NCBI RefSeq assembly: GCF_009931435.1
Contig: NZ_CP043414.1
Length of the DNA stretch: 64,000 bases
Source: Escherichia coli
Lineage (GTDB): Bacteria; Pseudomonadota; Gammaproteobacteria; Enterobacterales; Enterobacteriaceae
Reading direction: 5' to 3' (one strand)
The notes under the pieces: generated by a model
The model's input: only the letters and a program-made list of their open reading frames with translations
Told to the model about the DNA's origin: nothing
Databases searched by the model: none
Shown here: piece by piece, positions 23,122 to 64,000 of the stretch
Position numbering within the stretch: the stretch's first letter is position 1
Layout of the letters: the number at the start of each line of letters is the position of its first letter
Position numbers and translations under genes: made by a program

Positions 23122-23742
23122 TTAGTTCATCCAGCGATCTTTACGTTTGCGCGTTGGGATCAGGTGCGGCAGTACCAGACCGAGCAGCAAGCCAAGCCCC
23201 AGCACGCCGCCACCATACATAAACCACTGCATGATGATGGTGCGCTGTTTGTCATCCAGCTGCACGCTGGCGGCATCGACCTTTTTCTGCGCGACAATCA
23301 GCTCGTTTTTCAGTTTCTGATTTTCTTCTTTTAACCCGTTGATCACGCTGTCGCTCTGCGCCACTTTTTGCTGCATTTCTGCGGTGCGCTGATTCCAGGT
23401 GTTATCGATATTGGTGAGCTTATCGGTCAGGGTTTTGACCTGATTTTCCAGATCTGGCACACGGGAGCGCAGGCTTGGCTCTGTGCTAAGTTGTTTCAAC
23501 GGGATCCAGGCGGTACGGCCAGAGCTGTCTTTCACCTGGGCATAATTGGTGTTGGCGTCAGTTTGTAATAAGGTCACTTCCTCGCCGGCGTTAACCGTGC
23601 CCACGAGGCGATAATGGTCTCCCGGACCGCTACGGACCCAGGTATTCAGTTCGTCAGAAACATAGCGCGTTTCTTCAGCGTGTGAGACGGCAGTGGCGCT
23701 AAGCGCGAGTAAAGTTAATCCGATCAGGCGTAATTTTGGCAT
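23122..23742 (-). CDS. ygiM: SH3-domain membrane-anchored protein
   Basis: ORF track 206 aa; signal peptide, coiled-coil, C-terminal TM. Confidence 0.8.
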   Translation of the reverse strand: MPKLRLIGLTLLALSATAVSHAEETRYVSDELNTWVRSGPGDHYRLVGTVNAGEEVTLLQTDANTNYAQVKDSSGRTAWIPLKQLSTEPSLRSRVPDLENQVKTLTDKLTNIDNTWNQRTAEMQQKVAQSDSVINGLKEENQKLKNELIVAQKKVDAASVQLDDKQRTIIMQWFMYGGGVLGLGLLLGLVLPHLIPTRKRKDRWMN

Positions 23743-24084
23743 CAGGCTGTCGTTATTGTCATGGAAAGTGGAACGATAGTAGTGGCATCAGTGTCGCTAC
23801 GCAAAGCATTCGACATCAATCGGAATCCTCTGTGTCAGGTCTTGCCACTGCTTCAAACTTTTACGCCCGTCAAATTGCCCGTTGCATGGCAATTTGGCGC
23901 AAAATACTATCTACTGACAAAAAAGATCGCATTAAGTTCGCCGTTCATCGTCACTTATGTGACATAACCGATAAGTAAAGGCCTTGACATCCTCCCCCAC
24001 CTTCGCGCAAAGCGACTCAGGAGGGGGATTCCCTTGTCAGGGTAGCAATACGTTGCCGCATTGCCCGGTTCCTCGCTCGACGGC

Positions 24085-43017: not shown

Positions 43018-43845
43018 TTGGAAAGCCTGTTAACCCTTCCTCTGGCTGGTGAGGCCAGAGTCAGGATTTTACAAATTACCGACACTCACCTGTTTGCGCA
43101 AAAGCACGAAGCCCTGTTGGGGGTAAATACCTGGGAAAGCTACCAGGCGGTGCTGGAGGCGATTCGTCCACACCAGCACGAATTCGACCTGATTGTCGCG
43201 ACCGGTGATTTAGCGCAGGATCAATCCTCTGCGGCCTATCAGCATTTCGCTGAAGGCATCGCAAGTTTTCGTGCGCCCTGCGTCTGGCTGCCGGGCAACC
43301 ACGATTTTCAGCCTGCGATGTACAGCGCGCTACAGGATGCGGGGATTTCCCCGGCGAAGCGGGTGTTTATTGGTGAGCAATGGCAAATCCTGTTGCTGGA
43401 TAGCCAGGTGTTTGGCGTGCCGCACGGTGAGCTGAGCGAGTTTCAGCTTGAGTGGCTGGAACGTAAACTGGCCGATGCGCCAGAACGCCATACGTTGCTG
43501 CTGCTGCACCATCATCCGCTACCTGCGGGTTGTAGCTGGCTCGACCAACACAGTCTGCGTAACGCGGGCGAACTGGATAACGTGCTGGCGAAGTTTCCGA
43601 ACGTTAAATACTTGTTGTGTGGACATATCCATCAGGAGCTGGATCTCGACTGGAATGGTCGCCGCCTGCTGGCAACGCCATCGACCTGCGTGCAGTTTAA
43701 GCCGCACTGTTCCAACTTCACGCTGGACACCATAGCGCCTGGTTGGCGTACGCTGGAACTCCATGCCGATGGCACGTTGACCACCGAGGTGCACCGCCTG
43801 GCAGACTCCCGTTTCCAACCAGATACCGCTTCAGAAGGTTACTGA
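43018..43845 (+). CDS. cpdA: 3',5'-cyclic AMP phosphodiesterase (TTG start)
   Basis: ORF track 275 aa; metallophosphoesterase motifs GDLAQD, GNHD, GHIH. Confidence 0.9.
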
Positions 43846-44426
43846 TGTCGACGCTTCTTTATTTACACGGTTTCAATAGTTCGCCGCGTTCTGCGAAAGC
43901 GAGCTTGTTGAAAAACTGGCTGGCGGAACATCACCCTGACGTTGAGATGATCATTCCGCAGTTGCCGCCGTATCCTTCCGACGCGGCAGAACTGCTGGAA
44001 TCCATTGTCCTGGAACATGGCGGCGATTCACTGGGGATCGTCGGTTCATCACTGGGGGGATATTACGCCACCTGGTTGTCGCAATGTTTTATGCTGCCCG
44101 CCGTGGTGGTAAACCCAGCGGTGCGCCCGTTTGAACTGTTGACGGACTATCTCGGTCAGAACGAGAACCCCTACACCGGGCAGCAATATGTGCTAGAGTC
44201 ACGCCATATTTACGATCTCAAAGTCATGCAGATTGACCCGCTGGAAGCGCCGGATTTGATCTGGCTGCTGCAACAGACGGGAGATGAAGTGCTGGATTAC
44301 CGCCAGGCAGTTGCGTATTACGCCTCCTGCCGCCAGACGGTGATTGAAGGCGGTAACCACGCATTCACGGGCTTCGAAGATTATTTCAACCCGATCGTCG
44401 ATTTTCTTGGTCTGCACCATCTCTGA
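43845..44426 (+). CDS. yqiA: Esterase YqiA (alpha/beta hydrolase)
   Basis: ORF track 43743..44426; start [13 protein letters not shown] at 43845 overlapping cpdA stop (TGATG). Confidence 0.85.
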
Positions 44427-44451
44427 CGATCAACTCGAATTGCTAACTTAA

Positions 44452-46347
<1,896 letters not shown>

Positions 46348-46373
46348 TAATCCTCCCGCCAGAAGAATAAAAC

Positions 46374-46408
46374 ATAGCCCGGTATACAAGTGTATACCGG
46401 GCTTTTTT
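46374..46408. terminator. Bidirectional terminator between parE and the islet receptor gene
   Basis: gcccggtataca agtg tataccgggc followed by tttttt; receptor stop codon abuts at 46411. Confidence 0.7.
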
Positions 46409-46410
46409 GA

Positions 46411-48552
46411 TCAAAATTCCATTTTCACCGTGAATTGCACTTCACGAGGATCGCCAATCTGGTTGCCCAGATTATTTGTGGCGATGGAAGAGGTGTAATA
46501 CGTTTTATCAAACAGGTTTTTGACGTTTAATTGCAGTGTGACCGGATACTGCAATTTCATTTTGTATGCGGCGAAGGCATCGGCAACAAAATAGCCTGGC
46601 AGATAATAGTCAGCCCCATTGGTTGCCGAACGACGGCTTACACCATGTCCACCACCGCCAAACGTCAGTGTGTTATTGCCTGGCATGTTATGAATATCAT
46701 AGGTCAGGAATAGCGAACCGGTATGACGAGGAACATTCGGCAATGGTTTCCCTGCATAATCAGGATCCTCCAGAACCTTAGCATCGGTATAGCCGTAGCT
46801 GGCAATGATATTAATGTTTTCAGTTAATGCTCCCGCAAGGTCGACTTCTACCCCTCTTGAACGAACACGGCCTGCCGTTTTGGCAATGGTTTCATCACCA
46901 ACACTTTCGGTATACAACACATTACGTTTATGGATATCAAACAGCGCAATATCTGCGGTGATACCATCGAATAGCTCGAATTTTGCCCCGACTTCGTAAG
47001 CATTAGATGATTCTGGTGGTAGATCGCCAATGTAGCTGGCAATTGACGATTGCGGCATAAATGTTTGCGAATAATTGGCAAATAAGGATACCGATGGCGT
47101 CAGTTTGTAGACCAATCCCAGTTTGGGAGTCCATTGTTCATCGCGGCTGTCAGTATTGACATTAAAAGGACGGCCTTTACCCGCATACTGCGTGTAATAC
47201 TGATAGCGGAGCCCGGCGACGGCAATCCAGTTATCGGTCAGATAGAGTGCATCCTGTGCATAAGCTGAGTAGCTCTCCTGTTTGATCGTCTGATCACTGT
47301 CCGACGCCGAGACCGTTGTGCATTTGCTGGTATTGCCATAAACAGGGTTGTAGATATTGAAATCTTTAGCTTTTTTACAGCGAATCATATCTGTGCGCAG
47401 AAGATCATAATATTCATATGACACCCCACCCAGAATCTCATTATAGAATCCAGCAACATCAACATTCCCTTGCAGATCCGCACGAGTAGCATGCATACGC
47501 TGGGTAGATCCTTGAGTTGCATCAACACGCCGTGTCAGCGTTCCTGTCGTTGCATCATACGCGGTAACACGCGCCTGATTATCGCTGTATTTATCCTGGC
47601 TGTAGCTGTAATCAAAGCGCGCTGTCCACTGGCTATTGAGATGATATTCTGCGTTGAGTTGCGCCAGATCGGACTGACCATCTGTAATATTAAACGGTTC
47701 GTCAAAACGTATTTTTCGATCAACGTTTACGGGCTGTTTCGTCGTAAGGTCGAAAATCGTTCCACGATCGAACGGAGTTTTATAGTCCCGATGGGAATAG
47801 AGCATGGTTACTGTTGCATTATCACCAAACCAGGTGAGTGACGGGGCAATAAATGTACTGCGCTCTTTACCGAAGTTTCGCCAGTAATCTTCATCCTGCA
47901 CTTCCCCGGTAAGGCGATACGCCAGCTGAGTGCCTTCAATGGGACCTGTGATATCCAATTGCCCAGTGCCTCCGCCAAAACTGGAGGAAGTGGCTGAGAC
48001 AGTACCATGGAATGTTTTTTCCGGGCGCTTTGTCACGACGTTAATCAGTCCGCCAGGATCGAGAATGCCATACAGCGTGGAGGCCGGACCTTTTAGCACT
48101 TCCACACGTTCTGTGGCGGCGTTGAAACTGCGAGGAAGTACAGTTCGCAGGCCGTTGGTCATGATGGAGCCATCCCGGTTAGCACCAAACCCACGACGTA
48201 CAAAAGCATCCTGAGTCCCGCCTAATGTATTGGTCTGTACCACGTTACTGACGTTATAAAGTGCCTCATCCAGCGTCGTCGCATTCTGATTTTCCAGAAC
48301 TTGATCGCTAACCGTATTGACCACCTGCGGGATATCCAGCATCGGCATATCGGTTAATGTCGCCGTGGAGGTGCTCAGAGGTTGATAACCATCGGTCGCC
48401 TCAGTTGCGGTATTTGCATCCGCTGTAACAGTGATTGTTTCGCCATCTTTGGTCGTTACAGTGTCGGTTGCATGAATCATCGGTGCTGCAAAGAGCAGTG
48501 AAAAGAGCGCTCGACCTTTGAGTCCTGAGAATGAAGGTGTGAACATAGCCAT
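46411..48552 (-). CDS. TonB-dependent outer-membrane receptor (siderophore-type)
   Basis: ORF track 713 aa; signal peptide, TonB box ETITVTA, plug domain, C-terminal aromatic residue (FTVKMEF). Confidence 0.85.
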   Translation of the reverse strand: MAMFTPSFSGLKGRALFSLLFAAPMIHATDTVTTKDGETITVTADANTATEATDGYQPLSTSTATLTDMPMLDIPQVVNTVSDQVLENQNATTLDEALYNVSNVVQTNTLGGTQDAFVRRGFGANRDGSIMTNGLRTVLPRSFNAATERVEVLKGPASTLYGILDPGGLINVVTKRPEKTFHGTVSATSSSFGGGTGQLDITGPIEGTQLAYRLTGEVQDEDYWRNFGKERSTFIAPSLTWFGDNATVTMLYSHRDYKTPFDRGTIFDLTTKQPVNVDRKIRFDEPFNITDGQSDLAQLNAEYHLNSQWTARFDYSYSQDKYSDNQARVTAYDATTGTLTRRVDATQGSTQRMHATRADLQGNVDVAGFYNEILGGVSYEYYDLLRTDMIRCKKAKDFNIYNPVYGNTSKCTTVSASDSDQTIKQESYSAYAQDALYLTDNWIAVAGLRYQYYTQYAGKGRPFNVNTDSRDEQWTPKLGLVYKLTPSVSLFANYSQTFMPQSSIASYIGDLPPESSNAYEVGAKFELFDGITADIALFDIHKRNVLYTESVGDETIAKTAGRVRSRGVEVDLAGALTENINIIASYGYTDAKVLEDPDYAGKPLPNVPRHTGSLFLTYDIHNMPGNNTLTFGGGGHGVSRRSATNGADYYLPGYFVADAFAAYKMKLQYPVTLQLNVKNLFDKTYYTSSIATNNLGNQIGDPREVQFTVKMEF

Positions 48553-48650
48553 TTAGTCTGTTATCCCAAAAACTCGCGGATTGTCGCGAGTGAAAATTGT
48601 TTCTTATTGCTCACTAAGCACTATCCGTTTGTTATTTCGCCATCGGATAT

Positions 48651-48669
48651 GTAATTGAGAATCATTCAA
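48651..48669. promoter_or_regulatory. Candidate Fur box in the receptor/ABC divergent control region
   Basis: gtaattgagaatcattcaa, about 12/19 match to Fur consensus, core GAGAATCATT. Confidence 0.35.
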
Positions 48670-48925
48670 TCACGCGGTAATGTAGTAGTAAATGAGAAAT
48701 AACAAAAAATTGCTACATGTGTTTTTATGAAAGGTTTATACAATTTAATTGTTTTTAATTTATTAATATTTAATGTTTTTATTTTTATGTGCAAAAATAT
48801 TTTACCTGTTATTTACCTTGTTTTTGTGTGGCTTTTAACTGCTTGACTACTACATTTTGTGGCATCAAACTCTCAAAGGAGAATGAGTTTTATTTTTGTT
48901 TGTCTTTGATTAAGTTGGCGTACAC

Positions 48926-49735
48926 GTGGCACATAACGCAAAAGGGCAGGGGCTGATCCTCGACAATGTTTCTGCCGGGTATCACAAGAAAATCATTGTT
49001 GATGGTGTTTCTTTCTCCGTTCCCACAGAAAAAATGACCGTTCTGGTTGGGGCAAACGGCTGTGGAAAGTCGACGCTGCTCAGCACCATTGCTCGTATCT
49101 TGCATCCCATGGGCGGTTCGATATTGCTTGATGGCAACGCGATTCACGAGCAACCAACGAAAGCGTTATCCCGTAGACTTGGGATCTTGCCGCAGTCGCC
49201 ATTATTGCCGGAGGGCTTAACCGTTTATGAACTGGTGTCGCGTGGGCGTTTTCCCTGGCAGAATTTCATTCGTCAATGGAGCGACGCCGATGAGCTGGCG
49301 GTAGAAGAGGCCCTGAAATTAACGGGTACGCAGGAGTTTGCACATTTACCTGTTGAAAAACTCTCTGGTGGGCAGCGCCAGCGTTGCTGGATTGCGATGG
49401 TGTTGGCGCAAAAGACGCCTTATATCCTGCTGGATGAACCCACAACCTGGCTTGATTTACGTTATCAGGTTGAAATTCTTGAGTTATTACATGATTTAAC
49501 GCGTCATCACGGGCGTACAGTCGTCGTGGTGTTGCATGATCTGAATTTTGCCGTCAATTATGGCGATACGTTGATATTTTTACGCCAGGGGAAAGTGGTG
49601 CGTGTGTTGAATGAGGGGGAGCATTGCACGCCTGAGCTGGTAAAAGCGGTCTTTGACGTTGATGTTCACGCATCAATAAATCCTCTGACGGGAAAGCCGT
49701 TCTTCATGCCGTTTCGTGGTGTAGAAAAAGTATGA
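48926..49735 (+). CDS. Iron-siderophore ABC transporter ATP-binding protein (FecE/FepC-like)
   Basis: ORF track 269 aa; Walker A GANGCGKST, signature LSGGQRQR, Walker B ILLDEP; GTG start with weak SD. Confidence 0.85.
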   Translation: MAHNAKGQGLILDNVSAGYHKKIIVDGVSFSVPTEKMTVLVGANGCGKSTLLSTIARILHPMGGSILLDGNAIHEQPTKALSRRLGILPQSPLLPEGLTVYELVSRGRFPWQNFIRQWSDADELAVEEALKLTGTQEFAHLPVEKLSGGQRQRCWIAMVLAQKTPYILLDEPTTWLDLRYQVEILELLHDLTRHHGRTVVVVLHDLNFAVNYGDTLIFLRQGKVVRVLNEGEHCTPELVKAVFDVDVHASINPLTGKPFFMPFRGVEKV

Positions 49736-50715
49736 TGCGCACAGGGCTGGTTACTGTAATTTTCCTCGCCTTACTGCTGGTGGGATGCGTGGTATATCCA
49801 GGGATTGGTGCCCGATTTATTGCACCACAAACGGTGTTGCAGGCATTTCTTCATTTTGATCTGCAAAACTTCGATCACAACGTAATTGTAAGACTCCGTT
49901 TGCCGCGTTTAGCGGCAGCATTGCTTACCGGTGCTTCTCTTGGCGTTGCTGGTGCTTTGTTGCAGGCTGTCATTCGTAACCCATTGGGGGAGCCACATAT
50001 TTTAGGCTTAAATGCCGGAGCCGCTCTTGCTGTCGTTGCCGCCAGTGCGCTTGGACTGGCCTTTCCGATTGGACGCCCACTGCTGGCATCTACGGGGGGC
50101 GCGTTATTGTTCCTGTTGATATTGCTGCTTTCCTCCGCAGGGCGTTCAGGGTTAACGCCAATGAAAGTTACTTTATGCGGCGTGGCGCTATCGGCGTTCG
50201 TGTCCTCAATAACGGCTGCAATCCTGATTCTTGACGAACAAACACTGCTGGCGATGCGGACATGGCTAGCAGGTGATTTAGCGGGGCAGGATTGGGCGAC
50301 GCTGGGTACGTCCGCCTGGTTTTCTCTGGGGGGATTTGTGTTAGCCCTTTACCTTGCACCCTCCCTTAACATGTTGGCACTGGGCGATCGCATGGCGCAG
50401 GGGCTGGGCGTCTCTGTATTCCGCACGCGAACATTCACCCTGCTTGCGATCGCGTTGCTCTGTGGCGCAGCCGTATCGATTGCTGGCCCCATTGGTTTTG
50501 TCGGCCTGCTAGTACCGCAGATTGTCCGGCGTCTGGTATCAGCGGATCTGCGCGTTCTGCTCCCTCTTTCAGCTTGTGTCGGCGCACTTTTGTTATTACT
50601 GGCAGATATTATTGCCCGTACGCTTTTCACGCCCCATGAGTTAGCGACCGGTGTCATGACGGCGTTAGTTGGTGCGCCTGTTTTTGTCATTATGGCGACG
50701 AGGATGTTCAAATGA
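49732..50715 (+). CDS. ABC transporter permease (FecCD family)
   Basis: ORF track 327 aa polytopic; overlaps neighbours by 4 nt. Confidence 0.85.
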   Translation: MMRTGLVTVIFLALLLVGCVVYPGIGARFIAPQTVLQAFLHFDLQNFDHNVIVRLRLPRLAAALLTGASLGVAGALLQAVIRNPLGEPHILGLNAGAALAVVAASALGLAFPIGRPLLASTGGALLFLLILLLSSAGRSGLTPMKVTLCGVALSAFVSSITAAILILDEQTLLAMRTWLAGDLAGQDWATLGTSAWFSLGGFVLALYLAPSLNMLALGDRMAQGLGVSVFRTRTFTLLAIALLCGAAVSIAGPIGFVGLLVPQIVRRLVSADLRVLLPLSACVGALLLLLADIIARTLFTPHELATGVMTALVGAPVFVIMATRMFK

Positions 50716-51761
50716 GTCGGATAATGAACGTCGGGCTACGCCCACTACGTGTTGGTAAGTTTTCGACACTGGTACGCCCTAAAAATCTGCTGTTGCTTGG
50801 TGGGCTGTTCCTGCTTGCGGTTGGAATACTGATATTCGGTCTGATGCAGGGTTCTTTCTCTGTTCCGGCATCGGAAGTAGGACGAGCGTTGTTTGCTCCA
50901 GAAAACGTAAGCACAGACGCACGTTATATTGTGCAGGATATTCGCTTGCCGAGAGTCATCATGGCATTGCTATGCGGGGCCATGTTAGGTATGGCAGGGG
51001 CCGCAATGCAATCCATTGCACGTAACGGCCTTGCCGATCCTGGTTTAATCGGCGTCAAAGAAGGATGTAGCGTGGCTGTGCTGTGGCTGATTTTCCAGTT
51101 TCCAATGCTGGGAATGTTCTGGCGTCCAGTGGCTGGTCTTGCTGGCGGCCTGTTGGTGGCTTTAATCGTGATTTTTTGTGCGCGCGATATTTCCCGCCCG
51201 CGATTTGTTCTGATTGGTATTGGTGTTTCCTGGTTTTTCGCCGCCGGTATCGGTGTATTTATGACCACTGCAGATGTTCGAGATGTACAAACTGCATTGA
51301 TGTGGTTATCGGGAAGCCTGCATGCAGCTAACTGGATGTTAGTCGGTATTTCAGCCTGTTGGATGTTGCCAGCCGCTCTTTTATTGCTGTTCACCGCCAG
51401 GACGGCGGATATCGCTCTGCTTGGTCATCAGGTGGCAACCGGGTTAGGCGTGAATAGTTCTCGCCTGGCGTTGTTACGTGTCGCCGCACCCATAATCCTG
51501 ACAGCCGTCTGCGTTTCGTGTGTTGGTAACATAGGTTTTGTCGGATTGATAGCACCCCATATATCACGTTTTATTCTACGTGGCGGGCAGACGACATTAC
51601 TGCTGGGGAGCGCGGTATCGGGGGCGTTGTTAGTTATTCTGGCGGATAGCATTGGTCGTTTGGCTTTTTTGCCTTTGCAACTGCCTGCCGGAATCATTAT
51701 CTCACTGATTGGTGGACCATTTTTTTTGCTACTGCTCTGGCAGCGCAGGAACAGTTTTTAA
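50712..51761 (+). CDS. ABC transporter permease (FecCD family), second subunit
   Basis: ORF track 349 aa polytopic. Confidence 0.85.
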   Translation: MSRIMNVGLRPLRVGKFSTLVRPKNLLLLGGLFLLAVGILIFGLMQGSFSVPASEVGRALFAPENVSTDARYIVQDIRLPRVIMALLCGAMLGMAGAAMQSIARNGLADPGLIGVKEGCSVAVLWLIFQFPMLGMFWRPVAGLAGGLLVALIVIFCARDISRPRFVLIGIGVSWFFAAGIGVFMTTADVRDVQTALMWLSGSLHAANWMLVGISACWMLPAALLLLFTARTADIALLGHQVATGLGVNSSRLALLRVAAPIILTAVCVSCVGNIGFVGLIAPHISRFILRGGQTTLLLGSAVSGALLVILADSIGRLAFLPLQLPAGIIISLIGGPFFLLLLWQRRNSF

Positions 51762-51771
51762 CGGGAGTTAT

Positions 51772-52719
51772 ATGCGTTTATTTTTTTCTCTGCTGATACT
51801 GTTGTCATTTTTTTCCCGTGCAACAGAACCTGTTCAGGTATTTACTGATGATTTAGGGCGCAAAGTCACTGTTCCTGCTCATCCAAAGAGAATTGTCTCT
51901 TTACACGATCTTGATATCACTATTCCTCTGATTGAGCTCGGTGTACCTCCTATCGCCAGCCACGGGCGAACTCGGCCTGACGGTAGCCATTTCATTCGAT
52001 CTGGCGCGTTATTGACAGGTGTCGACTTTGATAATTCATCGATCGCCTTTATTGGTACCGCTGATATTGATATTGAAGCGATTGTGGCGGCAAAGCCTGA
52101 CCTGATCATCACAGAACCGACCCGTAATACGCCCATTGAACAACTTGAAAAAATTGCGCCCACGGTGAGCATTGATCATCTCAAAGGGGGCGCGCCAGAA
52201 ATCTATCGCAAGCTGGCAGAACTTACAGGAACGCAGTCGCAGCTGGCGATACTTGAACGCCGCTATCAGGCACAAATCAATGCGCTGAAGGCGACGCTGG
52301 ACAGCCAAAAAATAACGGTATCGGTGATTCAGGCAAACCAGGGAAAAATTAATGTGATGCATAGCTATCATTCGCTGGGGCGGGTATTACGCGATGCTGG
52401 TTTTCGTTTTCCGCCGCTGATTGAGAGCATTCCTGAAGGTGGGCGAATGGATGTGAGCGCGGAGCGTTTACCTGAACTGGATGCCGATTTTGTTTTTGCA
52501 ACCTGGCGCGGTGACACCGGGGGTAAACCTCAGGATGAGCTGGCAGCAATGGAAAAAGTCATGCCGGGATGGTGTCAGTTTCTGACTGCCTGTCGTTCCG
52601 GGCGTTATGTGCTGATTTCTCGTGAAGAGGCAATTTCTAACTCCTTTGCATCTCTGGGGCTGATGGCTGCGCAGATACAATCACAAATTGCAGGGCGACC
52701 TCTACCGGAGGCTAAATGA
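51772..52719 (+). CDS. Periplasmic siderophore-binding protein (class III, FecB/FhuD-like)
   Basis: ORF track 51709..52719; start MRLFFSLLILLSFFSRA at 51772 with gggag SD; signal peptide. Confidence 0.8.
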   Translation: MRLFFSLLILLSFFSRATEPVQVFTDDLGRKVTVPAHPKRIVSLHDLDITIPLIELGVPPIASHGRTRPDGSHFIRSGALLTGVDFDNSSIAFIGTADIDIEAIVAAKPDLIITEPTRNTPIEQLEKIAPTVSIDHLKGGAPEIYRKLAELTGTQSQLAILERRYQAQINALKATLDSQKITVSVIQANQGKINVMHSYHSLGRVLRDAGFRFPPLIESIPEGGRMDVSAERLPELDADFVFATWRGDTGGKPQDELAAMEKVMPGWCQFLTACRSGRYVLISREEAISNSFASLGLMAAQIQSQIAGRPLPEAK

Positions 52720-53604
52720 TCCAGAAAGATAAAGCGCGGGTTGATATTTTTGGTGAGCGTTTTCGCACTCGCGCGAGTCAGTTAACGCCTGGGTTAAGAG
52801 CTGTCGCCAGCTACATTAATGAGCATCGTGAAGTGGTACTCGAGCAAACGGCGATGGAAATTGCGGCCACGTTGAACACTTCCGATGCCACAGTTATCAG
52901 GGCTATACAGGCCCTGGGGTTTGCCGGGCTGCGTGATCTGAAACGCACTCTGGAACAGTGGCTTGGTCCAGCCCTTAGTTCCAGCGAAAAGATGTCTACG
53001 ACGGTGAGTAACTTGACGAGCGATGTTAACACCGCAATCGACTTTGTTCTTGAAGGGCATTTGTATACCTGTAATGTCCTGTCAGAGCCTGAAAACCGCC
53101 ACGCGCTTGCGCAAGCTGTAGCGTTGTTGGTGCAGGCACGGCAAGTCGCAATTTTTGGCATTGGCGCTTCGGGTATTCTGGCGGACTATACCGCACGACT
53201 ATTCAACCGCATAGGTTTGCCTGCCACGGCACTAAACCGTACGGGTATTGGCCTTGCCGAGCAACTGATCGCGCTTCAACGTGGCGATGTTCTGATCATG
53301 ATGGCGCAAAAATCTGCGCACCGGGAAGGGGTGACAACGCTTCGTGAGGCGAGGCGGCTGGGGAATCCCTGTTATTTTGCTGACAAACGCGCTGGATTCA
53401 CGTTTTAGCAAAGACGCCAGTATCGTGATTCATGTTCCGCGCGGGGATGAAAAAGGGAAAACGCCGCTACATGGTACGGTATTGTTGTGTCTGGAAATGA
53501 TTGTCTGGTCGGTAGCTTCCGCAGTGCCGCAGCGTGCGGTTAAAACCATTAAGCGAATTAACGATTTCCATCGAGGACTGAAAACGGGAAGAAAGAATGG
53601 CTAA
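52716..53604 (+). pseudogene. RpiR/MurR-family regulator (HTH_6 plus SIS domain) interrupted by a +1 frameshift near 53357..53362
   Basis: ORF 52716..53408 ends in NPCYFADKRAGFTF; ORF 53344..53604 in the next frame continues the SIS domain as GIPVILLTNALDSRF...; the two join across a gggg/aa run. Confidence 0.7.
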
Positions 53605-53616
53605 TCTGGGCTGAGA

Positions 53617-53645
53617 CCGGTAGCAGCACCGGCCTCTTTTCAGGA
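53617..53645 (+). terminator. Hairpin after the regulator gene (ccggtagcagcaccgg plus T-rich tail)
   Basis: Inverted repeat seen in sequence between regulator and ygiN. Confidence 0.45.
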
Positions 53646-53648
53646 ATG

Positions 53649-53963
53649 TTAAATCCCCGGTTGCAGGATACGAATATTCATCTCCAGCACGTCGCCTTTT
53701 ACGGCTTCGCTGTACGCCTTCATGTGCGGGGTTTGCAGGTGCGCTTCAAGGTGCGCGATGCTTTCCCACTGCTCAATCATCACGATAGAATCCGGTGCCA
53801 TAGACTGGAAACTCACGCCAGCAGCGCAATCCACCATTGGCGCATAGCCGTGGCAACCTTCTTCTTTCAATACGGTTGGAACGATTTTAGCAAACTGATC
53901 CAACACTGCCTGACGGTGATGTTGACCTGGACGAGTACGGATTTCTGCGATTACTGTAATCAT
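53649..53963 (-). CDS. ygiN: Quinol monooxygenase
   Basis: ORF track 104 aa MITVIAEIRTRPGQHHRQAVLDQF. Confidence 0.9.
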   Translation of the reverse strand: MITVIAEIRTRPGQHHRQAVLDQFAKIVPTVLKEEGCHGYAPMVDCAAGVSFQSMAPDSIVMIEQWESIAHLEAHLQTPHMKAYSEAVKGDVLEMNIRILQPGI

Positions 53964-53993
53964 GGTTAACTCCTTCTAAAGCCAGAGCTCTAG

Positions 53994-54575
53994 TTAACCA
54001 AAAATTTCCACAAGATGCTTGCGATATTCTTCAGTATAGCGGGGAACATCAGGCATTTTTATCACGTCATTAGCGATAAATGTCGGTAGCGGTTCCATAC
54101 CGAGGAATTGGTTTGCTTTATGGAACGGCAGGTACACACCGTCAACACCAACGCCGTGGAAGAACTGATCTTTTTCGGTGAAGGCTTCCATTGGTGCGTT
54201 CCAGGTCAGGGAAAGCATATATTTTTTGCCCTGTATCAGGCCGCCGGAACCGTATTTTTTTGATGGATCTTTGCGGGTACGACCATCGCTGGCATACAGA
54301 GTCCCGTGACCTTCGGTGAATACATCATCAATATATTTTTTCACTGTCCACGGCGCGCCCATCCACCAGCCTGGCATCTGCCAGATCACCACATCAGCCC
54401 AGAGAAAGTTTTGTACTTCGGCTTTGACATCGTAGTCGCTCTCGGCGCGAACAATACGGACATCATGCCCGAGGTCGCGCAGCGTGCCATCCGCGACTTC
54501 GGTCAGGGTGTCGTTCAGTTGACCATTGGAGTGGGCGAATTTTTTCGCGCCGTTGATAATCAGGATGTTGCTCAT
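53994..54575 (-). CDS. mdaB: NADPH:quinone oxidoreductase
   Basis: ORF track 193 aa MSNILIINGAKKFAHSNGQLN. Confidence 0.9.
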   Translation of the reverse strand: MSNILIINGAKKFAHSNGQLNDTLTEVADGTLRDLGHDVRIVRAESDYDVKAEVQNFLWADVVIWQMPGWWMGAPWTVKKYIDDVFTEGHGTLYASDGRTRKDPSKKYGSGGLIQGKKYMLSLTWNAPMEAFTEKDQFFHGVGVDGVYLPFHKANQFLGMEPLPTFIANDVIKMPDVPRYTEEYRKHLVEIFG

Positions 54576-54891
54576 TTTTTAACCTCAAGGTGAGACGTTT
54601 GCCGACTATAGTACGTCACAGAGCGGTACGGTGAAATTAGCAAAATGTGCAAAGTCTTTTGCGAATTTAGCAAAAGTCTGATCTTGCTCCGATTCACCGA
54701 TGCAGGATAAATATTTTCTGAAAATGACAATACTGATAGCCATTCCTCATAATTCCTACTCGCACCGGATTAATTTACAGGTTTGGTTCGGTTTTTTGGG
54801 GATTAAAAATATGGCGTTGGATAAGTAAAAATGAAAATATCAACGCGTCACGTTGATAATTATAAATGGATTTTTATGAGCGTGCTAACAT

Positions 54892-55224
54892 ATGTTAAAG
54901 CATAAAATTCAAACAATATTTGAAGCTCTGTTATATATAGTGCTTACTTATTGGTTAATAGATGCTTTTTTTGCATTCAATAAGTATGACTGGATGCTTG
55001 AGTCGGGAGACAATATTTGCAGTATACCTTCCGTTTCAGGCGAAGATCGTATATTGCAAACAATGATTGCAGCATTTTTTCTTCTGACGCCACTTATTAT
55101 TCTTATCTTAAGAAAACTCTTTGTGCGAGAAATCTTTGAGTTTTGGTTATATGTAATCTCGCTCGTTATTTGTTTGGTTTGTGGTTGGTGGCTTTTTTGG
55201 GGACGGTTTATATTTTGCTATTAA
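54892..55224 (+). CDS. ygiZ: Inner-membrane protein
   Basis: ORF track 110 aa, 3 predicted TM segments. Confidence 0.7.
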   Translation: MLKHKIQTIFEALLYIVLTYWLIDAFFAFNKYDWMLESGDNICSIPSVSGEDRILQTMIAAFFLLTPLIILILRKLFVREIFEFWLYVISLVICLVCGWWLFWGRFIFCY

Positions 55225-55269
55225 TAAAATCTATGAGAGTCGTTTTAACGGCTCTCATAGACAGAGAAG

Positions 55270-56619
55270 TTACCAGCTTACTTTCGCCTCAAATCCACCT
55301 TGTTCCGCATTCCCAAACTCAACATTCATGCCATGCAGCTTGGCGATTCGCTGGACAATTGAAAGCCCAAGTCCACTGCCGGTAGCGGTTTGTCCGGGTG
55401 GGCGATAGAAGCGTTCGCCAATTCTCGCCAGTGCCTCTGGTGTCACACCGGGGCCGTTATCCCTCACGATGAAATTATCGGCATTCAGCGTGACGTCCAC
55501 CACGCTACCTTGTGGACTGTAGCGCACGGCGTTATCCAGCAAATTTCGCACCAACAAACTTAGCAATAGCGGTTGTCCGGTGCGTTTGATGCCGTGGGCA
55601 TTGAGTGTCAGTCGCACGTCAATTTTTGCCTGCTGCGCCGTGTGGTAAATATCCATCACCGACGATTGCAGGAGATCTTCAAGCGGGATCTCCGCGACGT
55701 CCTGAAGGTTATCCAGTGAGTCCAGCCGCGATAGCGTGAGCAGTTGATCAACCAGACGAGTAGCACGATCGATCCCGGAATGTAATTGGAGCAGCGCTTT
55801 TTTCCGCGCCTGCGGATCATCGTCAGAGAGCTGCGCAACTTCGGTTTGCACTTTCAGCGCCGTTAACGGGCTTCGTAGTTCATGCGCTGCGTCGGAGGTA
55901 AAGCGTCGTTCACGAACCATCATCGCATGTGTGCGGGCGAACAGTTGATTTAGCGACTCAACCAGTGGACGCACTTCGCTGGGTACGCCCGTCGCGTTTA
56001 GTGGTTTTTCCGAGTCAGGGTCACGCATACGTAGTGCCAGCGCCAGTTTGTTCAGCGGCGCGAGTTCACGACCCAGTAGTACCATCATGATGATTAACAT
56101 AATCGGCAGTGCGACAAGCCACGGGATCAATTGCCCGGCAACAATTGCCAGCGCCATGTCTTCGCGGTATTCCCATTCCTGACCAACAACGATGCGATAT
56201 TTGCCATCAGGTGAGGTCATCCAGACAAAACGCCAGGGATCGTCTTCACCGACCAGTTGCCCGTCAGCAAAACCTTCCCGTTGATAGCTATAGGGAATAT
56301 CTTCTCCGTTATCCCCATCATTAAGGACCATTCTGCCGTCGTGGGTAAAGATGGCAAAGGTCAGCGCATCGTCATCAACATGACCGTGTTTTAATTTATT
56401 TGGCGTCTGTGCCATGCGATCCGCCGCGTTGATTTCGTTGAGATCGAGCGTACTTAACCGTTTGGCAAACAGCATCAGTTGGGTGTCGAACAACTCATCG
56501 ACGTTATCCGTTGTTTGTTTCCAGGCGACAAAGCTGGAAAGCAGCCAGGTCACCGAGGCCAGAATTAAAAAGATTAGCGTCAGCCTGACTCGCAGACTAA
56601 GACGTTGGGTAAATTTCAT
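55270..56619 (-). CDS. qseC: Quorum-sensing sensor histidine kinase
   Basis: ORF track 449 aa; H-box AAHELRSPL, HATPase motifs. Confidence 0.9.
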
Positions 56620-57275
56620 TTCTCACCTAATGTGTAGCCAATACCATGAACGGTACGAATAAAATCACTGCCGAGTTTGCGTCGCAGATGATGTACATGC
56701 ACTTCAACGGCATTACTGGTGACCTCTTCGTCCCAGGTATACAGTTTCTCTTCAATCAGTTTGCGCGGCAGTACCCGACCAGCGTTACGCATCAGTAATT
56801 CCAGCAGGGCAAATTCTTTTGGTTTCAGCGTTAAGGGTTCGCCAGCCAGCGTGGCGATACGTTTGCCGGGGTCGAGCATGACGTTACCGTGGCGCAGCTC
56901 GTTGCTGGCCTGGCCGTTGGTTCGGCGCATCAGAGCTTCCAGCCTGGCGGCGACTTCTATCAACGCAAAAGGTTTACACAGATAATCGTCAGCTCCCAGA
57001 CGCAGCCCTTCTACACGTTCCGCCAGCGCATCGCGCGCAGTCAGGATTAATACCGGCTCACGCTGACCTTTTTCTCGCCATTCGCGCAAAATATCGCGAC
57101 CATCCATGCCCGGTAAGGTTAAATCCAGGATCACCGCATCATAAGGTGCGCTATATAGCGCCTCTTTTCCCTGACGACCTTGTGTAAACCAGTCGACGCT
57201 AAAACCCATTTTACTAAGGCCCGTTTTGATGCCGTCGCCAATCAGCATGTCATCTTCTATCAGTAAAATTCGCAT
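56616..57275 (-). CDS. qseB: Response regulator (OmpR family)
   Basis: ORF track 219 aa [15 protein letters not shown]; overlaps qseC by 4 nt. Confidence 0.9.
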
Positions 57276-57426
57276 TTTTTCATCCCTGCGATAACCATAT
57301 TTGCTGCCAGTAAACCGTGTTGTAACGCGCTCTGTACAGCACTAAATTTTATTTTTTTCCCTTAAGAAGTTGTTAAGGACTATCTTGTTAAATGCTCGAA
57401 AACAGACATTAAAGGGAGTAATAAAC

Positions 57427-57819
57427 ATGAAAAAATTCGCAGCAGTAATCGCAGTAATGGCCCTGTGCAGTGCACCGGTGATGGCAGCAGAGCAGGGCGG
57501 TTTTTCTGGTCCATCGGCAACACAAAGTCAGGCCGGAGGATTCCAGGGGCCGAATGGCAGCGTAACGACCGTAGAAAGCGCAAAATCCCTGCGTGATGAC
57601 ACTTGGGTCACCCTGCGCGGCAATATCGTTGAACGTATCTCTGACGATCTCTACGTGTTCAAAGATGCCAGCGGTACTATCAATGTTGATATCGACCACA
57701 AACGCTGGAACGGCGTGACGGTGACCCCGAAAGATACCGTTGAGATTCAGGGTGAAGTCGATAAAGACTGGAACTCTGCTGAAATTGACGTCAAACAGAT
57801 CCGCAAAGTAAATCCGTAA
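57427..57819 (+). CDS. ygiW: BOF-family periplasmic OB-fold protein
   Basis: ORF track 57370..57819; start MKKFAAVIAVMALCSAPVMA at 57427. Confidence 0.85.
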   Translation: MKKFAAVIAVMALCSAPVMAAEQGGFSGPSATQSQAGGFQGPNGSVTTVESAKSLRDDTWVTLRGNIVERISDDLYVFKDASGTINVDIDHKRWNGVTVTPKDTVEIQGEVDKDWNSAEIDVKQIRKVNP

Positions 57820-57871
57820 TTGTTAGCGCTCCCGGGACACGTTCCCGGGAATAATTTCGCAGGGAGGCAAA

Positions 57872-58354
57872 ATGAAAAACCTGACACTGGATGTAAATAT
57901 TATCGATTTCCCATCAATCCCTGTGGCGATGTTGCCACATCGCTGTAGCCCTGAATTGCTCAACTACAGCGTGGCGAAATTTATCATGTGGCGTAAAGAA
58001 ACGGGGCTTTCTCCTGTTAACCAAAGCCAGACTTTTGGTGTCGCCTGGGATGACCCTGCCACCACCGTACCGGAAGCGTTTCGCTTTGATATCTGCGGCA
58101 GCGTTAACGAACCGATTCCCGATAATCGTTATGGCGTGAGTAATGGTGAACTTACCGGTGGACGTTATGCCGTGGCCCGCCACGTTGGCGAGCTGGACGA
58201 TATTTCACATACGGTATGGGGCATCATTCGCCACTGGCTGCCTGCAAGCGGCGAGAAAATGCGTAAAGCACCGATTCTGTTTCACTACACCAATCTTGCC
58301 GAAGGGGTAACAGAGCAGCGACTGGAAACGGATGTTTATGTGCCGTTGGCGTGA
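57872..58354 (+). CDS. ygiV: GyrI-like effector-binding domain protein
   Basis: ORF track 160 aa. Confidence 0.8.
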   Translation: MKNLTLDVNIIDFPSIPVAMLPHRCSPELLNYSVAKFIMWRKETGLSPVNQSQTFGVAWDDPATTVPEAFRFDICGSVNEPIPDNRYGVSNGELTGGRYAVARHVGELDDISHTVWGIIRHWLPASGEKMRKAPILFHYTNLAEGVTEQRLETDVYVPLA

Positions 58355-58462
58355 TGAAGAATCTTTACCGGAGTGTGAGCCAAATCACTCGCGATAAGTT
58401 TGAGCGAACAATGCCACAGGCGTATTGTTGTTGGGCTTATAATTTCTCCGGTAAGGAATACC

Positions 58463-60070
58463 ATGTATACGCGAAATTTATTATGGCTGGTCAGCCTGGT
58501 AAGTGCGGCTCCTCTCTACGCTGCTGACGTTCCCGCCAACACACCGCTCGCCCCGCAACAAGTCTTTCGTTACAACAATCATAGCGACCCAGGTACGCTC
58601 GACCCGCAAAAGGTGGAGGAGAATACTGCCGCGCAGATTGTGCTGGATCTGTTTGAAGGTCTGGTATGGATGGACGGTGAAGGCCAGGTGCAGCCCGCTC
58701 AGGCTGAACGCTGGGAGATACTGGACGGCGGCAAGCGCTATATTTTCCATCTGCGTAGAGGTTTGCAGTGGTCAGACGGTCAGCCTCTGACGGCAGAGGA
58801 TTTTGTCCTCGGCTGGCAGCGCGCGGTTGACCCGAAAACGGCAAGCCCTTTTGCTGGCTATCTGGCACAGGCGCACATTAACAATGCCGCGGCTATTGTT
58901 GCGGGTAAAGCAGATGTTACATCGCTGGGTGTCAAAGCGATGGATGATCGTACTATTGAAGTTACGCTTGAGCAGCCGGTTCCTTGGTTCACGACGATGC
59001 TCGCCTGGCCGACGCTGTTCCCGGTTCCCCATCATGTAATCGCGAAATATGGCGATAGCTGGAGTAAGCCTGCGCATATGGTTTACAACGGTGCCTTTGT
59101 GCTTGATAAATGGGTAGTTAACGAAAAGATTACTGCACGCAAAAATCCAAAGTACCGCGATGCGCAACATACGGTATTGCAACAGGTTGAGTATCTGGCG
59201 CTGGATAATTCGGTCACCGGCTATAACCGCTATCGCGCGGGAGAGGTCGATCTCACCTGGGTTCCGGCACAGCAAATTCCTGCCATTGAAAAATCACTGC
59301 CTGGCGAGCTACGAATTATCCCGCGTCTGAACAGCGAATATTACAACTTTAACCTTGAGAAACCGCCATTTAACGATGTGCGGGTGCGTCGGGCGCTATA
59401 TCTTACGGTTGATCGACAGCTTATTGCGCAAAAGGTACTGGGGTTGAGAACGCCCGCAACCACGCTGACGCCGCCAGAGGTAAAAGGCTTTAGCGCGACG
59501 ACGTTCGATGAACTGCAAAAGCCAATGAGTGAGCGTGTCGCGATGGCAAAAGCCTTGCTGAAACAGGCGGGATACGACGCCTCTCATCCGCTACGCTTTG
59601 AGCTGTTCTACAACAAGTACGATCTGCATGAAAAAACCGCGATAGCGTTGTCTTCCGAATGGAAAAAATGGCTGGGTGCACAGGTGACGCTGCGCACAAT
59701 GGAGTGGAAAACCTATCTTGATGCCCGACGAACCGGTGATTTCATGCTGTCTCGGCAGTCGTGGGATGCGACGTACAATGATGCTTCCAGCTTTCTGAGC
59801 ACGCTCAAAAGCGATAGTGAAGAAAACGTCGGTCACTGGAAAAATGCGCAGTATGACGCCTTACTAAACCAGGCCACGCAGATCACTGATGCGACAAAGC
59901 GTAATGCGTTGTATCAGCAGGCAGAAGTAATCATCAACCAGCAGGCACCGCTGATTCCTATCTACTATCAGCCGTTAATCAAACTGCTTAAACCCTACGT
60001 TGGCGGTTTTCCGCTGCATAATCCCCAGGATTATGTCTACAGCAAAGAGTTGTATATCAAGGCACATTGA
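58463..60070 (+). CDS. ygiS: Periplasmic solute-binding protein (family 5, oligopeptide/deoxycholate type)
   Basis: ORF track 58400..60070; start MYTRNLLWLVSLVSAAPLYA at 58463. Confidence 0.85.
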   Translation: MYTRNLLWLVSLVSAAPLYAADVPANTPLAPQQVFRYNNHSDPGTLDPQKVEENTAAQIVLDLFEGLVWMDGEGQVQPAQAERWEILDGGKRYIFHLRRGLQWSDGQPLTAEDFVLGWQRAVDPKTASPFAGYLAQAHINNAAAIVAGKADVTSLGVKAMDDRTIEVTLEQPVPWFTTMLAWPTLFPVPHHVIAKYGDSWSKPAHMVYNGAFVLDKWVVNEKITARKNPKYRDAQHTVLQQVEYLALDNSVTGYNRYRAGEVDLTWVPAQQIPAIEKSLPGELRIIPRLNSEYYNFNLEKPPFNDVRVRRALYLTVDRQLIAQKVLGLRTPATTLTPPEVKGFSATTFDELQKPMSERVAMAKALLKQAGYDASHPLRFELFYNKYDLHEKTAIALSSEWKKWLGAQVTLRTMEWKTYLDARRTGDFMLSRQSWDATYNDASSFLSTLKSDSEENVGHWKNAQYDALLNQATQITDATKRNALYQQAEVIINQQAPLIPIYYQPLIKLLKPYVGGFPLHNPQDYVYSKELYIKAH

Positions 60071-60207
60071 TGCCTTTATCGCCGTCGGAGCACGTCCGGC
60101 GGCGCTATTCACGCTGATCTCCTGTGACTCGACGCGGCAGATAATGTAGTATCTCCGGCAATATTGCCCCTTTGAAGGCTGGCGAATAAGTTGAGGAATC
60201 AGAATTA

Positions 60208-62466
60208 ATGAGCGATATGGCAGAGCGCCTTGCGCTACATGAATTTACGGAAAACGCCTACTTAAATTACTCCATGTACGTAATCATGGACCGTGCGTTG
60301 CCGTTTATTGGTGATGGTCTGAAACCTGTTCAGCGCCGCATTGTGTATGCGATGTCTGAACTGGGACTAAATGCCAGCGCCAAATTTAAAAAATCGGCCC
60401 GTACCGTCGGTGACGTACTGGGTAAATACCATCCGCACGGCGATAGCGCTTGTTATGAAGCGATGGTCCTGATGGCACAGCCGTTCTCTTACCGTTATCC
60501 GCTGGTTGATGGTCAGGGGAACTGGGGCGCGCCGGACGATCCGAAATCGTTCGCAGCAATGCGTTACACCGAATCCCGGTTGTCGAAATATTCCGAGCTG
60601 CTATTGAGCGAGCTGGGGCAGGGTACGGCTGACTGGGTGCCAAACTTCGACGGTACTTTGCAGGAGCCGAAAATGCTACCTGCCCGTCTGCCAAACATTT
60701 TGCTTAACGGCACCACCGGTATTGCCGTCGGCATGGCGACCGATATTCCACCGCATAACCTGCGTGAAGTGGCTCAGGCGGCAATCGCATTAATCGACCA
60801 GCCGAAAACCACGCTCGACCAGCTGCTGGATATCGTGCAGGGGCCGGATTATCCGACCGAAGCGGAAATCATCACCTCGCGTGCCGAGATCCGTAAAATC
60901 TACGAAAATGGTCGCGGTTCTGTGCGTATGCGCGCGGTGTGGAAGAAAGAAGACGGTGCGGTGGTTATCAGCGCATTGCCGCATCAGGTTTCTGGTGCGC
61001 GCGTACTGGAGCAAATTGCTGCGCAAATGCGCAACAAAAAGCTGCCGATGGTTGACGATCTGCGCGATGAGTCTGACCACGAGAACCCGACCCGTCTGGT
61101 GATTGTGCCGCGTTCCAACCGCGTGGATATGGATCAGGTGATGAACCACCTCTTCGCAACCACCGATCTGGAAAAGAGCTATCGTATTAACCTCAATATG
61201 ATCGGTCTGGATGGGCGTCCGGCGGTGAAAAACCTGCTGGAAATCCTTTCCGAATGGCTGGTGTTCCGCCGTGATACCGTGCGCCGCCGTCTGAACTATC
61301 GTCTGGAGAAAGTCCTCAAGCGCCTGCATATTCTGGAAGGTTTGCTGGTGGCGTTTCTCAATATCGACGAAGTGATTGAGATCATTCGCAATGAAGATGA
61401 ACCGAAACCGGCGCTGATGTCGCGCTTTGGCCTCACGGAAACTCAGGCGGAAGCGATCCTCGAACTGAAACTGCGTCATCTCGCCAAACTGGAAGAGATG
61501 AAGATTCGCGGTGAGCAGAGTGAGCTGGAAAAAGAGCGCGACCAGTTGCAGGGCATTTTGGCTTCCGAGCGTAAAATGAATAACCTGCTGAAGAAAGAAC
61601 TGCAGGCAGACGCGCAAGCCTACGGTGACGATCGTCGTTCGCCGTTGCAGGAACGCGAAGAAGCGAAAGCGATGAGCGAGCACGACATGTTGCCGTCTGA
61701 ACCTGTCACCATTGTGCTGTCGCAGATGGGCTGGGTACGCAGCGCTAAAGGCCATGACATCGACGCGCCGGGCCTGAATTATAAAGCGGGTGATAGTTTC
61801 AAAGCAGCGGTGAAAGGCAAGAGTAACCAACCGGTAGTGTTTGTTGATTCCACCGGTCGTAGCTATGCCATCGACCCGATTACGCTGCCGTCGGCGCGTG
61901 GTCAGGGCGAACCGCTCACCGGCAAATTAACGTTGCCGCCTGGGGCGACCGTTGACCATATGCTGATGGAAAGCGACGATCAGAAACTGCTGATGGCTTC
62001 CGATGCGGGTTACGGTTTCGTCTGTACCTTTAACGATCTGGTGGCGCGTAACCGTGCAGGTAAGGCTTTGATCACCTTACCGGAAAATGCCCATGTTATG
62101 CCGCCGGTGGTGATTGAAGATGCTTCCGATATGCTGCTGGCAATCACTCAGGCAGGCCGTATGTTGATGTTCCCGGTAAGCGATCTGCCGCAGCTGTCGA
62201 AGGGCAAAGGCAACAAGATTATCAACATTCCGTCGGCAGAAGCCGCGCGTGGCGAGGATGGTCTGGCGCAACTGTACGTTCTGCCGCCGCAAAGCACGCT
62301 GACCATTCATGTTGGGAAACGCAAAATTAAACTGCGTCCGGAAGAGCTACAGAAAGTCACTGGCGAACGTGGACGCCGCGGTACGTTGATGCGCGGTTTG
62401 CAGCGTATCGATCGTGTCGAGATCGACTCTCCTCGCCGCGCCAGCAGCGGCGATAGCGAAGAGTAG
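60208..62466 (+). CDS. parC: DNA topoisomerase IV subunit A
   Basis: ORF track 752 aa; active-site region [10 protein letters not shown]. Confidence 0.97.
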
Positions 62467-62699
62467 TATGCCGGGGAGGGTATTGCTTCCTCCCGCTTGC
62501 AAGGAACGCCGGATGAAACGTTAAGTCGTCATCCGGCAGCATATTCAACCCCCGGAAACGATAAAAATTCCCTTGAAACCGTTGTTTATTCATGCGTTGC
62601 GATTAACAATACGCTTTTCCAGAGAGCGGCTTTTAACAATGCCCTAACCTGATTTCAGGTGACGTACAATGCCAGTCTCTCAGACCTTCAGAGGGTGTT

Positions 62700-63437
62700 A
62701 TGCTATATATCTTTCGTCTTATTATTACCGTGATTTACAGCATCTTAGTCTGTGTATTCGGCTCCATTTACTGCCTTTTCAGCCCGCGTAACCCGAAACA
62801 TGTAGCCACCTTTGGGCATATGTTTGGTCGTCTTGCGCCGCTGTTCGGCCTGAAAGTTGAGTGTCGCAAACCTGCAGATGCTGAAAGCTACGGCAATGCT
62901 ATTTATATTGCTAACCACCAGAACAACTATGACATGGTGACAGCATCGAACATTGTGCAACCGCCGACGGTGACGGTAGGTAAAAAGAGTTTGCTGTGGA
63001 TCCCCTTCTTTGGTCAGTTGTACTGGCTAACCGGCAACTTATTGATCGACAGAAATAACCGCACTAAAGCTCACGGCACCATTGCAGAAGTAGTGAATCA
63101 CTTCAAAAAACGCCGTATTTCCATCTGGATGTTCCCGGAAGGTACCCGCAGCCGTGGTCGCGGCCTGCTGCCGTTCAAGACAGGAGCATTTCACGCGGCA
63201 ATTGCGGCGGGCGTCCCGATTATTCCCGTGTGCGTCTCTACAACTTCGAATAAGATTAATCTTAATCGGCTACACAACGGTCTGGTGATTGTCGAAATGC
63301 TGCCGCCAATTGACGTCAGTCAGTATGGCAAAGATCAGGTTCGCGAGTTGGCTGCCCATTGTCGTTCGATAATGGAACAAAAAATCGCTGAGCTCGATAA
63401 AGAAGTCGCAGAACGCGAAGCCGCCGGAAGAGTTTAA
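62700..63437 (+). CDS. plsC: 1-acyl-sn-glycerol-3-phosphate acyltransferase
   Basis: ORF track 245 aa; HxxxxD motif NHQNNYD. Confidence 0.95.
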   Translation: MLYIFRLIITVIYSILVCVFGSIYCLFSPRNPKHVATFGHMFGRLAPLFGLKVECRKPADAESYGNAIYIANHQNNYDMVTASNIVQPPTVTVGKKSLLWIPFFGQLYWLTGNLLIDRNNRTKAHGTIAEVVNHFKKRRISIWMFPEGTRSRGRGLLPFKTGAFHAAIAAGVPIIPVCVSTTSNKINLNRLHNGLVIVEMLPPIDVSQYGKDQVRELAAHCRSIMEQKIAELDKEVAEREAAGRV

Positions 63438-63509
63438 GTCGGCAATCTGTATTTTTGCGGGAACACTTTCCTGCACGGTATTACTTTAGCCAGTTTTACA
63501 TGGAGCAAA

Positions 63510-64000
63510 TATGTCACTCAGTCGGCGTCAGTTCATTCAGGCATCGGGGATTGCACTTTGTGCAGGCGCTGTTCCCCTGAAGGCCAGCGCAGCCGGGCAA
63601 CAGCAACCGCTACCCGTTCCGCCGCTGCTTGAATCTCGCCGTGGGCAACCGCTGTTTATGACTGTACAACGTGCGCACTGGTCATTTACGCCAGGAACGC
63701 GCGCATCGGTCTGGGGAATCAATGGTCGTTACCTGGGGCCGACTATCCGCGTCTGGAAGGGCGATGATGTTAAGCTGATCTACAGTAACCGCCTGACAGA
63801 AAATGTCTCAATGACGGTGTCTGGTTTACAGGTGCCTGGCCCGCTGATGGGCGGTCCGGCACGGATGATGTCGCCAAACGCTGACTGGGCACCCGTATTA
63901 CCCATTCGCCAGAACGCAGCGACATTGTGGTATCACGCTAATACCCCCAATCGCACGGCTCAGCAGGTCTATAATGGCCTTGCCGGAATGTGGCTGGTGG
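63510..64000 (+). CDS. ftsP: Cell-division multicopper-oxidase-like protein FtsP, 5' part (runs off window end)
   Basis: ATG 63510 gives MSLSRRQFIQASGIALCAGAVPLKASA (Tat signal RRQF); no stop in window. Confidence 0.9.

Follow-up and report, generated by a model that had tools for sequence, protein, structure and literature searches.

The fit islet and its regulator

The stretch of DNA analysed here (the window; 64,000 nt of contig NZ_CP043414.1, Escherichia coli assembly GCF_009931435.1) contains, between parE and ygiN, an islet of six genes that is missing from genomes in which ygiN directly adjoins parE. From the open reading frames (ORFs) and the annotation of reference genomes the complete layout of the fit system can be recognized, with fitA divergent from fitB, fitC and fitD (FecCD permeases), fitE and fitR, Table 1. 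The last of these genes is present as two ORFs in different frames, and it is this interruption that forms the subject of what follows.

Table 1. Features of the fit islet and of the interrupted regulator gene
Feature	Position	Strand	Evidence
fitA, TonB-dependent outer-membrane receptor, 713 aa, intact	46411-48552	-	qPCR primers at 47732-47808; exact protein common to the clone
Divergent fitA/fitB promoter region	48553-48925	.	published fit-promoter primers at 48574-48595 and 48909-48932
fitB (ATPase), intact	48926-49735	+	qPCR primers in order; collinear with references
fitC (permease), intact	49732-50715	+	qPCR primers in order; exact protein on record
fitD (permease), intact	50724-51761	+	qPCR primers in order; exact protein on record
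fitE (binding protein), intact	51772-52719	+	qPCR primers in order; exact protein on record
fitR 5' part: 216 native residues (HTH_6, linker helix, SIS b1-b3), 14 out-of-frame residues, TAG	52716-53408	+	ORF list, Pfam, primers
G (Val206) in place of C (Leu206) of most E. coli, lineage marker	53331	+	clone-mate, metagenome and other assemblies, orthologue alignment
fitR 3' part, +1 frame: residues 217-295 of intact FitR (SIS b4, b5, three helices), TAA	53365-53604	+	ORFs, reverse primers, structure model
Terminator-like hairpin (53617-53632) and T tract, between convergent fitR and ygiN	53617-53641	+	sequence, gene layout

In order to establish the identity of the interrupted gene we have made use of the primers listed in Table 2 of Ouyang and Isaacson (PMC2593036) for strain i484, which cover fitA-E, fitR, the promoter and two fitR cloning pairs. 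All 18 have sites in the window with 0-1 mismatches, in the order and orientation expected, and because of this the split gene is fitR. The fitR2 forward primer corresponds to 52716-52738, the fitR qPCR primers to 52819-52906 and the fitR reverse primers to 53584/53587-53601, so that the published construct for expression of FitR begins with the ATG at 52716 and closes with the codon that ends at 53601, an intact frame of 295 codons. A 295-aa product between the published cloning primers would have a mass of ∼32 kDa, in minor discrepancy with the Results section of PMC2593036.

The split ORFs are thus fitR, the already characterized autorepressor of the fit siderophore/iron-uptake islet. In strain i484 FitR binds the fitA-fitB promoter in electrophoretic mobility shift assays and represses fit, acting as an autorepressor of fitA/fitBCDER; a fitR knockout raises fitA and fitB expression 2.2-4.9-fold in a Fur-independent manner, while increases of 23-fold and 52-fold are seen in a fur mutant and in the double mutant, respectively, and FitR still represses at leaky levels of expression (PMC2593036). 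The i484 system and the window share the gene, the operon layout (fitA divergent from fitBCDE-fitR) and the HTH plus SIS architecture of the regulator; the window allele differs from published FitR in the extra A after codon 216 that truncates the SIS domain, and in the substitution Leu206Val.

Repression of fit by Fur has likewise been reported (PMC2593036). When the AT-rich fitA-fitB promoter region (48553-48925) was scanned with a 19-bp Fur-box consensus the best sites, at 48879 and 48651, had 6-7 mismatches out of 19. Small inverted repeats are found in this region at 48864-48893 and 48794-48803. The draft contig L008 of a clone-mate ends within the same region, at window position 48730.

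One extra base in fitR

The first of the two ORFs (52716-53408, plus strand, 230 aa) ends ...LREARRLGNPCYFADKRAGFTF*, and the second (53344-53604, plus strand, 86 aa) reads ...GIPVILLTNALDSRFSKDASIVIHVP... in the +1 frame relative to the first, with its stop at 53602-53604. The last 14 residues of the 230-aa product, NPCYFADKRAGFTF, are out of frame and are followed by TAG. Deletion of one base gives a single protein of 295 aa with HTH_6 and SIS domains, the length found in orthologues, in agreement with the initial annotation, which had proposed that the regulator is split by one extra base, that the next frame continues the SIS domain and that a single-base difference would restore a protein of roughly 295 aa.

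Base-by-base alignment to intact alleles (ATCC 11775, 2020CK-00188, CP057959.1 and L019-L022) identifies the additional base as an A at 53364/53365, the window reading GGGGAATCCC and the intact alleles GGGGATCCC. Two candidate runs had been named in the initial annotation as the place of the insertion, gggg and aa. The second is correct and the first is not, since the GGGG run is the same in the window and in the intact alleles and it is the lone A of the intact allele that has been duplicated. Because the intact allele has a single A here the site is not a true homopolymer, so that the short homopolymer run that had been given as the context falls away; a homopolymer-tract, slipped-strand mechanism was rejected for the same reason and because GGGG is unchanged. 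The intact site is a Dam GATC sequence at the center of the GC-rich palindrome GGGATCCC, and the insertion destroys this GATC. Slots for an insertion inside a GATC make up 1.4% of all slots in the window.

Over a region of 895 nt the identity to the intact fitR of the type strain ATCC 11775 is 99.8%, with exactly two differences, the extra A and a G for C at 53331. Downstream of the break the sequence agrees fully with intact alleles, and hence there is no secondary decay. We had first suspected that the two differences were a cluster of local errors; this was rejected when G53331 was found in lineage-mates. Because the chromosome of a clone-mate, CP057959.1, also carries G53331, Leu206Val is a genuine marker of the lineage. 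The column of residue 206 is variable in orthologues (L/Q/M/T).

The repaired protein is 98-99% identical to common E. coli FitR and contains an rpiR-type HTH_6 domain (PF01418, residues 15-81, E = 1.1e-9) and a SIS domain (PF01380, residues 138-247, E = 9e-14). The order of the domains, N-terminal HTH_6 followed by C-terminal SIS, is that of the MurR/RpiR repressors (RpiR/AlsR, MurR, HexR), of which FitR is a distant member, its target being a siderophore transporter instead of a sugar pathway. FitR matches the solved structures 8K3B, 8JU9 and 4IVN over nearly its full length, with E values of ∼1e-15, and lies far under every curated NCBIfam equivalog cut-off (the best scores being 78 bits against a cut-off of 920, and 73 against 378). 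Among the matches listed, at least 120 relatives from Escherichia, Salmonella, Lelliottia, Kosakonia, Raoultella, Klebsiella, Erwinia and Sodalis have lengths of 295-299 aa, apart from partial sequences at contig ends, and orthologues of Enterobacter fall in this range as well; orthologues that end naturally at the break, which had been named as the finding that would speak against a frameshift, do not appear among them.

The truncated product retains the HTH but lacks a complete C-terminal SIS domain. An alignment of 30 orthologues (∼70-99% identity to the query) shows that of the 79 residues past the break ∼30 are invariant, among them V240-P-R-G243, P250-L-H252 and C258-L-E-M261. In an AlphaFold2 model of FitR (mean pLDDT 72, and 84-95 over SIS residues 121-240) the strands of the SIS sheet are placed at 144-147 (b1), 170-173 (b2), 192-196 (b3), 219-223 (b4) and 236-239 (b5), and helices past the break at 229-233, 251-269 and 272-288. 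With the native sequence ending at Gly216, two of the five strands (b4, b5) and the three helices are lost. Because the lost segment is both strongly conserved and structurally essential we infer that, as the sequence is written, the truncated product would be unable to fold the SIS domain and the allele would be that of a null repressor, in which the HTH would remain in the absence of a folded oligomerization and sensor domain. Because fitR closes its operon, ahead of a convergent terminator, the frameshift would have no polar effect.

Occurrence and origin of the extra base

The extra A is private to this sequence among public data. A 61-nt query centered on the site gave no 100% match in any of the 1,867 RefSeq-complete E. 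coli genomes with the locus, all of which lack the extra A, and Val206 (G53331) is absent from the 1,863 genomes of this collection in which it was sought, a collection that includes ordinary genomes, the complete genomes of the window lineage (CP057959.1, OZ038830.1) lying outside it. CP057959.1 itself was retrieved by means of an exact-protein anchor (QseC). Over window positions 47269-64000 (16.7 kb), for which the two were compared as DNA, there are zero mismatches and a single gap, the extra A. For the first 47 kb of the window exact-protein look-ups took the place of a comparison of DNA. All 18 of the other proteins looked up across the window match the clone exactly, and the lineage-restricted Aer, NfeF, TsaD, TnpB, GlnE, YgiF, ParE and FitA are each found on 14-28 contigs that include CP057959.1, leaving FitR as the only product in these look-ups for which the window departs from its clone. 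An independent metagenome contig, L021, has 3 SNPs and the same gap relative to the window over 20.9 kb, and GGGGATCCC is likewise the reading in three further assemblies, of 98.9-99.4% identity; the site is intact and G53331 is present in each of L019-L022. The intact Val206 form of the FitR protein occurs on 256 contigs.

Neither truncated product, of 230 or 86 aa, was found among ∼15 billion proteins and 153 billion gene positions, Logan assemblies of read sets included, which is weak evidence because PGAP pseudogenes give no protein record. A scan of metagenome contigs returned 0 frameshifted copies and only 4 intact ones, too few to carry much weight, and a scan of genome contigs with exact strings matched neither allele, although ATCC 11775 holds the intact 35-nt string, so that this collection is uninformative here.

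The initial annotation had left open whether the regulator is inactivated in this strain or whether the frameshift is a sequencing error, and this either/or is supported. We infer, with roughly even confidence, that the A is a consensus or base-calling error of the assembly and that the organism has an intact 295-aa FitR. That the base is genuine, a very recent, strain-private insertion that has made fitR a pseudogene and left fitA and fitBCDE mildly and constitutively derepressed, is a serious possibility to which we give slightly less than an even chance. The base is unique in public data, being found in no other assembly, including the 14-28 contigs of the same clone and the 256 with Val206, and nothing else distinguishes the window from CP057959.1 over 16.7 kb; as an indel, and not a SNP, this one visible difference has the form that a consensus error would be expected to take. 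The insertion falls within a Dam GATC at the center of a palindrome, and methylated motifs (Dam, Dcm) are known hot spots for residual long-read base-calling and consensus errors. The truncated product is missing even from the read-derived Logan assemblies, and the sequence past the break shows no decay. All of this favors an error and counts against a mutation, although the lack of protein records for PGAP pseudogenes weakens the argument from the missing product.

The quality of the remaining sequence points in the opposite direction. The base is present in the sequence as given, and across 64 kb no other coding indel separates the window from a 98.7%-identical genome or from clone-mates, the other indels relative to that genome being at three intergenic sites and in its own frameshifted fitE; the consensus is thus of high quality. 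The window has 851 homopolymer runs of at least 4 bases, and since coding sequence contains no disturbed one the assembly is not indel-prone in general; nor is the site one of the long homopolymers where platform indel errors concentrate. Real single-base frameshifts in accessory genes of E. coli are common, with an independent one in fitE of the nearest other relative, and selection for the loss of a repressor is plausible. Were the insertion genuine, the allele would be null, the ∼30 invariant columns and the structurally essential strands and helices being lost. The other fit genes are all intact, so that a working transporter would be there to be derepressed, and a fitR knockout derepresses fit 2.2-4.9-fold independently of Fur (PMC2593036).

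Two further explanations can be weighed against the same data. It is most improbable that the insertion is real but leaky, with tRNA-Pro slipping by +1 at CCC (53367-53369) onto CCU so that some full-length FitR(I217N) is made. From inspection of the sequence the mutant mRNA would read CUG GGG AAU CCC UGU, and a +1 shift at CCC-U would give ...LGNP-VILLTN..., native except for I217N. CCC-N is a known +1-prone context in the P site, and the programmed site of prfB uses AGGGGG-N3-CUU; the GGGG that lies 3 nt upstream of CCC mimics the spacing of the Shine-Dalgarno-like stimulator there. The fitR allele and prfB would have in common a G-rich tract 3 nt 5' of a shift-prone codon and the need for the +1 frame to obtain the full-length product, and the putative shift site falls in the one stretch where a shift could succeed, past the +1-frame stop at 53332-53334 and ahead of the 0-frame stop at 53406. 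That FitR represses even when its expression is leaky (PMC2593036) would allow a small amount of product to matter. In contrast to prfB, the A site holds UGU, an ordinary sense codon that is neither stop, rare nor hungry, and the insertion represents a derived and not an ancestral state. With the allele private, no conservation points to selection for recoding: the shift site is absent from the 1,867 genomes and the 256 contigs with the same marker, and the orthologues are all in frame. Residue 217 is always hydrophobic in orthologues (I/V/M/L), and Asn may thus be damaging. Were such slippage to occur, the repressor would be down-tuned and not absent, in an accidental and newly arisen prfB-like recoding.

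We give practically no credence to the possibility that the two ORFs are distinct genes by nature, the first for a short HTH regulator and the second for a small protein downstream of it. Both are open in the window, and nothing further speaks for it. The orthologues are all single proteins of 295-299 aa, and the functional FitR construct of the published work covers 52716-53601 as one reading frame. The break falls midway through the SIS fold, no Shine-Dalgarno sequence precedes the GTG with which the 86-aa ORF begins, and the nucleotides are identical to those of intact alleles save for one base. A naturally short regulator was rejected on the basis of the orthologue lengths and of the difference of one base only from the clone-mate.

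If the extra A is an error, the slightly favored reading, the record needs correcting and fitR should be annotated as an intact gene of 295 aa. If the base is real, fit would be expected, by analogy with the published knockout, to be derepressed ∼2-5-fold whatever the ligand of FitR, with control by iron through Fur retained; the strain would then be a natural fitR-null comparator to the otherwise identical CP057959.1 that could help in finding the ligand or the regulon of FitR. Either way the lesion is an ordinary single-base frameshift in a gene that is known, as is its function, and no new kind of system is involved. It is like the pseudogenes marked 'frameshifted' by PGAP and the frameshifts of assemblies, where the same one-base indel splits a conserved coding sequence into two overlapping ORFs; nothing material differs, this one simply not being recorded elsewhere, and its importance is small beyond annotation hygiene.

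Neighboring regions and lineage

The nearest RefSeq relative of the window, E. coli 2020CK-00188, has a one-base deletion of its own in fitE (L002, 24273-25219), annotated as 'frameshifted' by PGAP. Here GGGGG (window 52182-52190) has become GGGG, in a true G5 homopolymer, and a different fit gene is broken or mis-sequenced.

Identity of the window to the B2 type strain ATCC 11775 (window 43716-54575) rises along the islet, from 94.2% in parE to 97.2% in fitA, 98.6% in fitB, 99.3% in fitC, 99.7% in fitE and 99.8% in fitR, and is 96.2% in ygiN. In the comparison with 2020CK-00188 there is near identity at 48000-53500, against 10-24 differing bases per 500 nt in the flanks. From these comparisons of sequence the right half of the fit islet looks to have been exchanged recently between lineages whose core flanks are 3-6% apart.

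The window lineage shares ∼97% identity with mainstream E. coli across 24.5 kb, and its proteins (CP057959.1, OZ038830.1) are recorded under the names E. coli or 'MULTISPECIES Escherichia'. The lineage may represent a divergent group of Escherichia, cryptic-clade-like or of another kind.

Between mdaB and ygiZ, ATCC 11775 has a gene for an Hcp-family type VI effector and a hypothetical gene (L001, 11109-12301), both of which are lacking from the window (54576-54891). The mdaB-ygiZ intergenic region of the window holds the only other indels relative to 2020CK-00188, at 54791 and 54823-54828. An element of the IS200/IS605 family lies at ∼23600-25290, between ygiF and ygiM, with an ISEc41-like tnpA and a gene for a TnpB/InsQ RNA-guided nuclease of 401 aa; the exact TnpB is found on only ∼20 contigs.
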